A stretch of DNA of 32,000 bases, taken from the NCBI RefSeq assembly GCF_045310525.1, contig NZ_JBJHZY010000001.1:1922671-1954670 (forward strand). Direction: 5' to 3'. Numbering within the stretch: the stretch's first letter is position 1; each line of letters begins with the position of its first letter. This DNA comes from Candidatus Clostridium radicumherbarum. Lineage in GTDB: Bacteria; Bacillota; Clostridia; Clostridiales; Clostridiaceae. Under the pieces are notes generated by a model. The model worked only from the letters and a program-made list of their open reading frames with translations, was not told where the DNA came from and did no database searches. Shown in pieces: positions 15,703 to 19,672 of the stretch. The position numbers and the translations under genes are program-made.

Positions 15703-17607
15703 CTAAAATTCAGGTGGTAATGTAAGCATTTCCTCATAATTAAAAACAGGTCCATCAATACACATATACTTGCTTCCAACTTTACAGTGCCCGCATTTAC
15801 CTATACCACATCGCATGTGGGTCTCTAGAGAGGTATATATATCTGTGCCTTTCATTCCTAAATTTATTAAATCCTTAGCAACAGCTTTAATTCTTCTTGG
15901 AGATGCACAGATTATTGCCGAAGTATTATTCCAATTGAGCCCTAAATCAGGTAGTAAGTCATTAATATAGCCTACATGAGCATTTACCTTGGTTGTAGCA
16001 TTGCTTAAGGCATAAAGTACCTTAACCCCATCTATATTACTCCATGAAATTAAGTCATCTTTATAAACTAAGTCTTCATAGGACATGGCACTCCCTATAA
16101 TAACAACCTTTCCAAAGTCCTGCCTGTTTTCAATTATCCGTAATATCATGGTTCTTACAGGTGCAAGGCCAACACCACTACCGATTATAATTATATCTTT
16201 GCCTTTAAATAAGTCATAATCAAAACCTTTACCAAATGGGCCTCTTAAGCCTACCTTATCTCCTATTTTCATTTCATGTATGGCATTAGTTACTTTACCG
16301 GTTTTTTTAATACAAAAATCAAAATATTCTTCTGAGCTTGGAGAAAATGGAATTGAAATTGCTATTTCTCCCACCCCAAAAACCGTTATTTCAAAAAATT
16401 GTCCTGTAAATTTAAAATTCTCATGCAAAGATTTATCCTCATATTGCATAATAAACCTTTTAATATTCTTAGTTTCTGGAATGATATCTGTAATAACCGC
16501 AACTTGCGGAGTATAAACACTTTCGCAGTTATTATCATGATGCAGTAGATGTTTATCTTCCTCAATTTTTTCAGAAGGTATTTCTATATTGCTTTTTTCA
16601 GCCAAAGTATTAATAATACCAACAATATTTATATTTGCAGGGCAAACATTGATACACCTTCCACAACCTGTGCAGCCCTTCATACTAAACTTTTCCTCAA
16701 TGTATTTCATTTTATCATATATTCTGTATCTTACCCTTGATACCTTATTTCTTGGATTATGCTCACCAGCATTTCTAGTAAAAGAATCACTTTGACAAGA
16801 ATCCCAGTATCTTACCCTGCACCCGCTGCAGCTATCAGTATTTTCTTCAACCACATTAAAGCATGTGCATGTTGGACACATATTTGTGCAGCCTGTACAT
16901 CTTACACAATCCTTCGATATTTCTTCCCACAAAGGATCATTAAAGTTTTCTTCTAAGAGCTTATGAATATTTTTCTTTGTAAGCTTTAGCTTAAATTTCT
17001 TATTTACTTCATTAAGTAATTCAGCCTTTTGGTCAGCATAATTTTCATCAATATTAAAAAATATTGAAGCTCCAAGTTTTATTAATTCTTCTCCCTTATT
17101 GCTGCCTATTTCAACCATATATATATCGTTGATTTCTGTAAAAAGAATATCGTAGCCAGAGCTAGCAAATGGTCCAATACCCATTGATTTGCAAAAGCAG
17201 TTTTCTCCTACTTCAGTACAATTCACAGCAGCAAAATAAGCTGTTTCTCTGTTTTTTTCGTAAGCTTCATCCTTATAACCTTCAAGAAAGAACTTATCCA
17301 TATATGCTATACCATAGGCATCACAGGCTCTAATTCCAAAAAATAATCTTTTCCTTTTATTATTGCTTGTAAAGTTATCAACCTGTATATCTTTACCTTT
17401 AAGCTTCCAATTAAATAATTTCTCCTTTTGTTTAAAAATATATTCTTTTACTGGGAAAGGAAAATTTATATAATCTAAAGTTAGTTTATCTTCATCAAAG
17501 GGTAGAAGCATAACTTGTCCTTCTTCATCTTGCGGTGCATAAACTTCAAATGCATTAGACCAAAGCTTTAATAATTTTTTTATATCTTCTTTTTTTACAG
17601 CAAGCAT
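15703..17607 (-). CDS. Fused iron-sulfur/flavoprotein electron-transfer subunit. The N-terminal half is AsrA/sulfhydrogenase-beta-like with 2x[4Fe-4S]; the C-terminal half is an AsrB/PyrK/sulfhydrogenase-gamma-like FAD/NAD(P)-binding domain with a [2Fe-2S] site.
   Basis: 634 aa. Cluster motifs: CVRCTGCTNMCPTC and CTGCGRCINVCP in the N-terminal half, and CGIGKCGHCKVGSKYMCIDGP at the C-terminus. IIIIGSGVGLAPV is a ferredoxin-reductase-type NAD(P)-binding motif. The ATG directly abuts the fdhA stop codon (TAAATG). Confidence 0.8.
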   Translation of the reverse strand: MLAVKKEDIKKLLKLWSNAFEVYAPQDEEGQVMLLPFDEDKLTLDYINFPFPVKEYIFKQKEKLFNWKLKGKDIQVDNFTSNNKRKRLFFGIRACDAYGIAYMDKFFLEGYKDEAYEKNRETAYFAAVNCTEVGENCFCKSMGIGPFASSGYDILFTEINDIYMVEIGSNKGEELIKLGASIFFNIDENYADQKAELLNEVNKKFKLKLTKKNIHKLLEENFNDPLWEEISKDCVRCTGCTNMCPTCTCFNVVEENTDSCSGCRVRYWDSCQSDSFTRNAGEHNPRNKVSRVRYRIYDKMKYIEEKFSMKGCTGCGRCINVCPANINIVGIINTLAEKSNIEIPSEKIEEDKHLLHHDNNCESVYTPQVAVITDIIPETKNIKRFIMQYEDKSLHENFKFTGQFFEITVFGVGEIAISIPFSPSSEEYFDFCIKKTGKVTNAIHEMKIGDKVGLRGPFGKGFDYDLFKGKDIIIIGSGVGLAPVRTMILRIIENRQDFGKVVIIGSAMSYEDLVYKDDLISWSNIDGVKVLYALSNATTKVNAHVGYINDLLPDLGLNWNNTSAIICASPRRIKAVAKDLINLGMKGTDIYTSLETHMRCGIGKCGHCKVGSKYMCIDGPVFNYEEMLTLPPEF

Positions 17608-19644
17608 TTATTTCACCTCTTCAATTCTCACAGCACAAACTTTAAATTCTGGAATTTGGACAGTTGGGTCTATGTTTTTACCAACTAGCTTGTTAACAGC
17701 TGACTCATAAAAATGAAAGGGAATAAATACTACACCTTCCATAATATTTTCAGTAATTCGAACCTCGATAATAATTTCTCCAATTCTAGAAGTTACCCTT
17801 ACCTTTTTCCTATTTCTTAGTCCAAGCTTTTCAGCATCATTGGGGTTTACTTCCATAAACCCTATTGGATATTCTCTATCTAAAGCCCATGCTCTCCTAG
17901 TCATTGTGCCAGTATGATAGTGATGAAGTAATCTACCCGTTGTTAAAATATAAGGATACTCCTCAGTAGGAAGCTCACTTGATGGAGCGTAATTATTTAT
18001 AGTAAATCTTCCAAGTCCTCTTGAAAACTTGCCTTTATGCAAAAACTTTGTTCCAGGATGATTTATATCAGGGCATGGCCACTGAAGGCCTTCCTTTTCA
18101 AGTCTTTCGTAAGTAATACCTCCATAGCTAGGAACTAACCCTCTCATTTCTTCCATTATGTCCGAAGGAGAAGAATAATCTGCCTGTCCTCCTAAAGCTC
18201 TGATAATTTCACATAGTATTCTCCAGTCCTCTTTACTATCTCCAATTGGGCTTATTGCTTTTCTAACCCTTTGAACTCTTCTTTCAGTGTTTGTAAAAGT
18301 GCCATCCTTTTCCATAAAGCTTGTACCAGGAAGTACAACATGGGCAAGTTTTGCTGTTTCAGTCATAAAAATATCTGAAACTACTAATAGCTCTAAGCTT
18401 TCTAAAGCCTTTTTAACATGATTTATATCTGGATCTGAAAGCATAGGGTTTTCAGCCATAATAAAAAGCGATTTTATACTCCCTTCAATGGCTCCATCCA
18501 TCATTTCCCCAATAGTTCTGCCTGCTTTTGAAGCAAAATCCTTTCCCCAAACTAAAGAAAATTTATCATGAATTTTTTCATCAATTAATGCTTGATAACC
18601 TGGTAAAACATCTGGAAGTGCTCCCATATCACAGGCCCCTTGAACATTATTTTGCCCTCTAAGAGGATTTATTCCTGTCGATTCTCTGCCTATCTGACCG
18701 GTTAGTAAAGATAGATTAGCTAGTGCCCCTACACTTTTGGTACCAGTAATATGCTGAGTTATTCCCATGGCATAAACTATAGAAGCTTTTCCTGCCTTGG
18801 CATATAATCTTGCTATTTCTCTAATAGTTCCTTCGGGAACTCCAGAAATAGCGGCTACCTTCTCAGGTGTGTATTCTTTAATTGATGGCTTAAATTCCTC
18901 AAAGCCTTCAGTTAAATTATTTATAAACTCTTCATTAATTAAATTCTCGTTTACTATTACATTTAAAATTCCATTAATAAAAGCTAAATTGCTTCCTGGA
19001 ATAATTGGTGCATATATATGGGCATATTCTGCTAGAGGTATTTTTCTAGGATCAGCAACAATTAACTTAGCTCCTTTATTTTTAACTGCATTTATTATTC
19101 TCACGCTGATTAAAGGGTGCTGCTCTGTTGTATTAGACCCTATTACAAAAATTACTTCTGCATCTTCCAACTCATCAATTGTATTTGTCATTGCTCCACT
19201 TCCAAATGCTGCAGCTAAACTAGCTACTGTTGGGCTATGTCAGAGGCGGGCACAATGATCAATATTATTACTTTTTATTATTGCACGAGCTAATTTTACC
19301 ATTAGATAATTTTCTTCATTGGTACACCTTGCTGAAGATAACATTCCTATAGCTTCAGGTCCTTTTTTTTCAATAATATTTTTATAGGAATTGCTTATAA
19401 AAGAAATAGCACTATCCCAAGAAACCTCTTTAAAGCTTCCATCAGTTTGTCTAATTAGAGGCTTAGTTAATCTATCCTTGTGATTTACAAAGCTGTAGCC
19501 CTGCCATCCTTTAACGCAAAGTTTACCCTTGCTCACTGGATGATCATTCTTTGGTGTTACCCCAATTATCTCATTATCATCAACGTTTAAATAAAAATTA
19601 CAACCGCAGCCGCAATAACCACATGTAGTAAGGACCTTCTTCAT
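17608..19644 (-). CDS. fdhA: Formate dehydrogenase catalytic subunit (FdhH/FdhA-type molybdo/tungstopterin enzyme), selenocysteine-containing; the in-frame TGA at 19242-19240 is read as Sec
   Basis: ORF-track entries 19240..19668 and 17608..19191 are in the same frame, separated only by a TGA. Across the junction the minus strand reads ...[34 protein letters not shown]..., which is the conserved H-C-A-R-[VL]-U-H-[GS]-P-[ST]-V context of Sec formate dehydrogenases. The N-terminal [4Fe-4S] motif is CGYCGCGC...C(VKGW). The preferred start is the ATG at 19644 (MKKVLTTC) after a GGGGGG SD sequence; the track start at 19668 is possible. Confidence 0.9.
19202..19233 (-). promoter_or_regulatory. SECIS-like hairpin immediately 3' of the fdhA UGA
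   Basis: On the mRNA, the upper stem is CAGUAGCUA/UAGCUGCAG (19229-19221 with 19217-19209; 7 Watson-Crick pairs, one G-U pair, one A-A mismatch) around a GUU apical loop. A lower stem CCAA/UUGG (19233-19230 with 19205-19202) is possible. The structure starts 6-13 nt after the UGA, the position expected for a bacterial SECIS. Confidence 0.6.
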
Positions 19645-19672
19645 TTCACTTCCCCCCAAATAAATCATTTAA

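Follow-up and report, generated by a model that had tools for sequence, protein, structure and literature searches.

On the minus strand of the window, by which we mean the whole 32-kb stretch of DNA that was analysed, a co-directional cluster comprises moeA, moeA-PBP, a MOSC-domain gene, fdhA, a gene for a 634-amino acid Fe-S/flavin protein, mobA and fdhD, all identified by their Pfam and NCBIfam matches. The fdhA gene is presented by ORF calling as two minus-strand pieces, 19240..19668 (142 aa) and 17608..19191 (527 aa), which lie in the same frame and have one TGA (19242..19240) between them. A sequence-only reading of this DNA, made before the present analysis, had placed both ORFs in a common frame and had given the junction peptide as DHCARL-(TGA); translation confirmed the former and matched the latter exactly. 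When TGA is translated as U, the region 19668..17608 encodes an uninterrupted product with one recoded codon. The features considered here are as follows.

17608..19644, minus strand: fdhA, a single 678-codon gene; start ATG 19644..19642, stop TAA 17610..17608
19240..19242, minus strand: predicted UGA selenocysteine codon, residue 135 of 678 (143 if counted from ATG 19668), aligned to Sec140 of FdhH
19211..19227, minus strand: predicted bacterial SECIS upper stem-loop, GUAGCUA-GUU-UAGCUGC, 7 bp with a 3-nt loop starting G-U, from the MFE fold and RNAalifold
19187..19245, minus strand: match to Rfam SECIS_3 (RF01989), which includes the UGA; 48.3 bits, E 1.6e-10, model positions 1-59 of 59
15703..17607, minus strand: gene for the probable FdhA electron-transfer partner, 634 aa, from Pfam and NCBIfam matches; its start codon (ATG) abuts the fdhA stop

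Gene structure, protein family and the Sec/Cys column

The start of fdhA was assigned to ATG 19644, giving 678 residues with selenocysteine (Sec) as residue 135, because full-length orthologues begin with M[KR][KR]VLTTCGYCGCGC; this ATG is preceded by GGGGGGAAG. The alternative start at ATG 19668 was rejected, as it is without a Shine-Dalgarno sequence and lies only 4 nt past the upstream stop, and the orthologues start at the MKKVLTT position. The proposal of a single selenoprotein of ~678-686 aa, and not a pseudogene, was borne out, with the length now placed at 678 aa. The 16 codons separating the TGA from the following ATG (19191) had been described as open and conserved-looking, and are so, with only 4 synonymous changes compared to the 94%-identical orthologue from Candidatus Clostridium stratigraminis, which also has TGA at this position. 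Comparison with the same orthologue gave dN/dS values of 0.086 upstream of the TGA and 0.103 downstream, ratios of about 0.1 that place the two halves of the gene alike under purifying selection.

The fused protein aligns to the entire TIGR01591 model (1-672 of 672; formate dehydrogenase subunit alpha, FdhH type) with 868.6 bits, and passes the curated cut-off of 666.25 bits solely when the TGA is read through. Its Pfam domains are PF04879 (Fe4S4, residues 9-63), PF00384 (molybdopterin oxidoreductase, residues 66-489) and PF01568 (MGD-binding, residues 573-679). Of the closest known systems, the Escherichia coli enzyme FdhH (FdhF; PDB 1AA6/1FDO) aligns end to end at 589 bits, residues 1-677 of the protein described here against 1-688. 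Counted from ATG 19644, C8, C11, C15 and C43 lie opposite the cluster cysteines of FdhH, and U135-H136 lies opposite X140-H141 of FdhH 1aa6, so that Sec140 corresponds to residue 135. The catalytic arginine motif (R333 in FdhH), which has the form GxNPxRGQNNVQGACD and reads GINPLRGQNNVQGACD here opposite GVNPVRGQNNVQGACD in FdhH, is conserved between the two proteins, as are the N-terminal cluster cysteines. The sequence-only reading had cited the motif CAR[VL]-U-HGP around the recoded residue; its CAR[VL]-U-H part is shared with FdhH but the HGP part is not, the context being CARV-U-HGP in E. coli and CARL-U-HSP here. By homology, Sec135 would be the ligand of Mo or W.

The column occupied by the UGA was followed through 142 distinct homologous sequences from Clostridia and other phyla, among which it is TGA in 85 and TGC or TGT in 57. 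The first set of homologues was drawn from genomes of the same genus, family, order and class, and its 65 distinct sequences of the region comprise 46 with TGA and 19 with TGC/TGT. An independent, cross-phylum set added another 39 distinct sequences with TGA and 38 with Cys, besides a single outlier with Ser. A conserved His directly follows the column. Apart from the Ser outlier, the column is TGA or Cys throughout. The earlier reading had named another sense codon here in close relatives, with the flanking motif not conserved, as evidence against itself, and the homologues do not bear this out; its view of the TGA as a Sec codon is upheld by these counts and by the alignment with Sec140 of E. 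coli FdhH. TGA is found in the 94%-identical orthologue and in orthologues of 77-78% identity, and Cys in others of 69-74% identity. The latter, from Logan assemblies, are true Cys forms, because the gene calls made on these assemblies stop at TGA. Alternation between Sec and Cys is classical for FdhA (PMC1794560), and this column is a further instance of it.

These data bear on a rival reading of the annotation, namely that the UGA stops translation in a pseudogene or a truly split gene, leaving a 134-aa Fe4S4 fragment and possibly a separate 527-aa product made from ATG 19191. Standard ORF calling yields exactly these two pieces, ATG 19191 has a GGAG 2 nt before it, and public gene callers give truncations of the same kind, of 526-540 aa, in 67 of the best 120 database matches. 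That 85 distinct homologous sequences share a TGA at this column, however, is incompatible with independent decay, and the purifying selection on both parts extends to the 16 codons between them, where all 4 differences are synonymous. Both products would lose the metal ligand and the adjacent His, while the GGAG is encoded by a conserved F-G-S-G-A-M peptide and is too near ATG 19191; the genome also holds the full sel machinery, which is described below. We consider termination at the UGA very unlikely and take the split ORF for the artefact that usually arises when a gene caller does not recode UGA.

The hairpin downstream of the UGA

The segment 19227..19211, which codes for V-A-S-L-A-A, folds into a stem of seven contiguous pairs, past which there is an A.A mismatch and then one C-G pair. 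The loop (19220..19218) is 19 nt past the UGA, which ends at 19240. A hairpin with a GUU loop had been proposed 3' of the UGA from the sequence alone, and both the hairpin and its loop are retained here; the nine pairs assigned to it (19209-19229) are not, as such a stem holds the A.A mismatch and the seven pairs alone are contiguous and conserved. The hairpin had also been said to start 6-13 nt after the UGA, of which the lower figure fails, the stem beginning 11-13 nt after it. In terms of stability the hairpin is nothing unusual when compared to dinucleotide shuffles (z = 0.19). A z-score for folding is uninformative for a short SECIS within coding sequence, and the evidence that this hairpin exceeds chance is comparative, not thermodynamic.

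The published model of the bacterial SECIS (the bSECISearch consensus, PMC13188914) specifies an apical loop of 3-9 nt on an upper stem of 4-16 bp, a G within the first two loop positions that is usually followed by G or U, a distance of 16-37 nt from UGA to apical loop, and an MFE of -7.5 kcal/mol or lower. In this gene the loop is GUU (AGUUU if the closing A-U pair opens) on 7 bp, A-GUU-U fits the pattern N1-G[G|U]N-N2, the spacing is 19 nt, and the MFE is -8.0 kcal/mol for 21 nt, -9.7 for 43 nt and -12.1 for 56 nt. The identification of the downstream hairpin as a bacterial SECIS accordingly agrees with all four constraints of the model.

Relationship to the Rfam families is less direct. 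At gathering thresholds the whole window gave zero Rfam matches, and the SECIS_3 match surfaces only when an E-value threshold is applied to the local region; its 48.3 bits do not reach the gathering score of 63, a shortfall due to differences here in the lower stem and in the geometry around the bulged U. In the SECIS_3 alignment the five apical pairs conform to the model, as does the A-GUx-U loop, whereas the lower-stem pairs and two upper-stem pairs beyond the bulged U are flagged as non-canonical; where the model has the bulged U, the stem here continues without a bulge. RNAalifold, applied to 44 Sec homologues, predicted the upper hairpin alone. A longer lower stem (CAU...AUG etc.), suggested by the MFE fold and the Rfam model, was rejected, being unsupported by RNAalifold and non-canonical in Rfam. 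The SECIS of E. coli fdhF is similar in lying directly 3' of the UGA within the coding region and in presenting a G-U in its apical loop, and differs in its bulged U, the hairpin described here being a contiguous 7 bp with a 3-nt loop. On the strength of its sequence, the element is one predicted to work like SECIS_3, yet it falls short of the Rfam membership score.

It is covariation that provides the decisive evidence for the hairpin from sequence comparison. The codons for V-A-[S/G]-L-A-[A/T] form the stem, in which two pairs, 19225/19213 and 19222/19216, link third-codon positions that are free at the protein level. Both of these wobble-wobble pairs are kept in 44 of 46 Sec forms compared to 4 of 19 Cys forms (Fisher p 2e-9, a value inflated by relatedness, as kin are not independent), and the loop G-U is present in 43 of 46 and 8 of 19, respectively. 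Among the Sec forms the pairs at one of the two positions are UA, AU, GC or GU and at the other AU, UA or CG, with compensatory changes at the two wobble pairs in 14 and 17 Sec sequences. All seven pairs are intact in 41/46 Sec and 1/19 Cys sequences of the first set and in 37/39 Sec and 4/38 Cys sequences of the cross-phylum set, i.e. 78/85 against 5/57 over both. The cross-phylum set also holds non-synonymous changes that have been compensated, with V-E-G-L-S-T encoded by GUAGAA/UUUCUAC and V-S-G-L-G-T by GUGUCC/GGGCAC.

Shuffle tests gave the same picture. The proportion of paired cells in Sec forms is 94.5% compared to 81.4% in shuffles, a level reached in 0 of 500 shuffles, while for Cys forms it is 72.2% compared to 69.6%, with 78 of 500 as high. 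The covariation score is 0.391 for Sec forms and 0.167 in their shuffles (0/500 as high), and 0.175 for Cys forms against 0.136 (46/500 as high). Sliding the partners by 1-3 columns in the Sec forms brought pairing down to 11-63%. The conserved V-A-G/S-L-A peptide by itself accounts for some of the potential to pair, with Cys forms still paired in 72% of cells. The pair counts and the shuffle tests agree in showing covariation of the SECIS among Sec forms but not among Cys forms. Two Sec outliers of the first set with about 43% identity, L084 and L086, fail the seven-pair register, although they are not counter-examples: by eye, they contain a perfect 6-bp hairpin, C[UA]GUAG-CGGGU-CUAC[AU]G, shifted by 3 nt, which is a one-codon offset around the same GGU.

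The hairpin further helps to judge whether the TGA could be an assembly or sequencing error for TGC or TGT, in which case the enzyme would be a Cys-type formate dehydrogenase. Close Cys orthologues do exist, as full-length Logan-assembly proteins of 69-74% identity, and speak for this idea. Against it, independently assembled genomes with orthologues of 94% and 77-78% identity have TGA at the same place, the hairpin is intact as in Sec forms and is mostly absent from Cys forms, and the loop GU is typical of Sec forms. We hold an error to be even less probable than a split gene, and a genuine selenocysteine codon to be the better account of the TGA.

Selenium machinery and predicted decoding of the UGA

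A Sec codon implies the genes for its decoding, and the sequence-only reading had predicted selA, selB, selC and selD elsewhere in the genome, citing the absence of the first three as a ground for refutation. All four were found. The genome assembly, of 23 contigs and 100% complete by marker genes, has selD, selA, selB and tRNA-Sec contiguous in one locus (G000:C1:1433529-1438060), all above curated cut-offs. The scores are 398.5 bits for selD, 622.3 bits for selA, 381.8 bits for selB and 65.8 bits for tRNA-Sec (Rfam RF01852), which ARAGORN also calls as tRNA-SeC with anticodon UCA. The selD gene contains one in-frame TGA, in the context ...SRTSG-U-AAKIG..., and on account of this UGA SelD would itself be a selenoprotein.

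Another conceivable explanation is that the UGA is read as a different amino acid, either under a variant code (Trp in table 4, Gly in table 25) or by near-cognate suppression. Nothing specific speaks for it, as any such code opens the frame by construction. Other long ORFs of the window end in TGA, which is therefore not a general sense codon; a six-frame scan of stop-to-stop segments broken only by TGA found no further read-through candidate in the 32-kb window, so that the fdhA codon is the one case. Homologues have Cys and never Trp or Gly at the aligned position, and the genome encodes a dedicated tRNA-Sec (UCA) and SelB. The likelihood of such a reassignment appears negligible, the lowest of the alternatives weighed here.

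Taken from sequence, the TGA at 19242..19240 is almost certainly decoded as Sec, and 19644..17608 is one gene for an FdhH-type formate dehydrogenase catalytic subunit. According to the E. coli paradigm, as the ribosome nears the UGA the downstream mRNA would form the 7-bp hairpin with its G-U apical loop, and SelB, carrying GTP and Sec-tRNA(Sec) with anticodon UCA, would bind this loop and, competing with RF2, bring Sec into the A site. Selenophosphate would be supplied by SelD, and Ser-tRNA(Sec) would be converted to Sec-tRNA(Sec) by SelA. In the folded enzyme, Sec135 would be the selenium ligand of a Mo or W bis-MGD cofactor, beside His136 and the Arg of the GINPLRGQNNVQG motif. The sequence data show the frame, the family, the Sec/Cys column, a conserved and covarying hairpin and a complete set of sel genes; that Sec is in fact inserted, which metal is bound and what accepts the electrons are inferred by analogy.

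Among bacterial selenoproteins, FdhA has the widest distribution (PMC13188914, PMC1794560). Perhaps not surprisingly, the Sec-containing FdhA encoded here and its in-frame bacterial SECIS are both standard, and make a textbook case. The value of the finding is practical, not conceptual: the annotation is corrected to one 678-aa selenoprotein instead of 142-aa and 527-aa ORFs or a pseudogene, and the artefact of truncation is shown to be common in public protein sets, given its frequency among the best 120 matches. The complete selD-selA-selB-selC locus indicates that this Clostridium species uses selenium, and both formate dehydrogenase activity and heterologous expression of the enzyme would need selenium and a SelB compatible with the SECIS.

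Related enzymes and the probable electron-transfer partner

Besides FdhH, two proteins are among the closest of known structure by sequence. The alpha subunit of an F420-dependent formate dehydrogenase (PDB 9T1S chain L; 757 bits) shows its Sec as X in CARL-X-HS, the same context as here, and FdhF of the HDCR of Thermoanaerobacter kivui (PDB 7QV7 chain S; 714 bits) is a Cys form with CARLCHAP. A 'formate dehydrogenase H' of C. homopropionicum DSM 5847 is 76% identical over 678 aa, with the same N-terminus and motifs; its entry is displayed with Cys at the Sec column, and since this display gives any U as C, the NCBI entry could be Sec.

These systems differ from the present one in their partners, which are the hydrogenase-3 complex for E. 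coli FdhH, an F420-binding FdhB for 9T1S and hydrogenase filaments for HDCR. Here, the gene abutting fdhA encodes a fusion of two modules resembling sulfhydrogenase subunits, one beta-like (Fe-S) and one gamma-like (FAD/NAD(P), 2Fe-2S), which match P. furiosus sulfhydrogenase I at 4.8e-46 (PDB 9nez_B, beta) and 7.1e-57 (PDB 9nez_C, gamma). For the chemistry and the cofactor, it is the flanking cofactor genes that suggest formate oxidation or CO2 reduction with a Mo or W bis-MGD cofactor.

A beta/gamma-like module is found directly downstream of fdhA in many lineages, either fused or as two genes, an arrangement which suggests an NAD(P)-linked formate dehydrogenase. It is tempting to propose that Sec-FdhA and the translationally coupled 634-aa fusion form a two-polypeptide NAD(P)+-linked formate dehydrogenase or CO2 reductase, the SECIS then being a lineage variant of the formate dehydrogenase SECIS, though we put this forward tentatively and lean somewhat against it. 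In the literature searched, no biochemical characterisation of an FdhA with a sulfhydrogenase beta/gamma-like architecture was found. Were the two-polypeptide proposal true, the Sec codon of fdhA would still be an ordinary one.

Selenocysteine machinery of the genome and the imprint of the SECIS stem on FdhA

The genome that carries fdhA also encodes the selenocysteine pathway in one compact locus.

G000:C1:1433529-1438060, selD-selA-selB-tRNA-Sec (L010, L009, L001, L014)

An in-frame TGA is likewise present in selD, in the context SRTSG-U-AAKIG; because selD carries its own such codon, the source genome (G000) holds two or more selenoprotein genes. Residues specified by both arms of the SECIS stem co-vary in several Sec-type FdhA genes from the cross-phylum homologue set (L097, L102, L134, L137 and L157), giving peptides such as V-S-G-L-G-T and V-E-G-L-S-T, and in these genes the protein sequence itself, beyond wobble positions, is constrained by the RNA structure.

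Gene callers systematically truncate Sec-FdhA. C-terminal fragments of 526-540 aa make up 67 of the 120 best homologues in a 5.8-billion-protein collection, and these database entries take the next Met downstream of the Sec codon as their start.

The gene downstream of fdhA

The fdhA stop adjoins the gene for a 634-aa fusion protein.

15703-17607, minus strand, sulfhydrogenase-I beta-like + gamma-like fusion, 634 aa (PDB 9nez_B, 4.8e-46; 9nez_C, 7.1e-57)

The same module, as a single fused gene or two separate genes, also lies 3' of fdhA in Clostridium, Gudongella, Nitrospirota, Thermodesulfovibrionia, Omnitrophota and others, and this recurrence across many lineages suggests an NAD(P)-linked FDH architecture, for which a literature search found no characterisation.

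Unusual homologues

One FdhA homologue of 49% identity (L075, G185:C1:3351936-3353957) has a single in-frame TAG, located away from the Sec/Cys column, which is TGT (Cys); the TAG could reflect a pseudogene, an error or recoding. At that column one homologue, L147 (a Thermodesulfobacteriota MAG, JAXHSZ010000220.1), has Ser (TCA) in the context CTRL-S-HSSTE, and may be a non-FDH superfamily member or an inactive copy.
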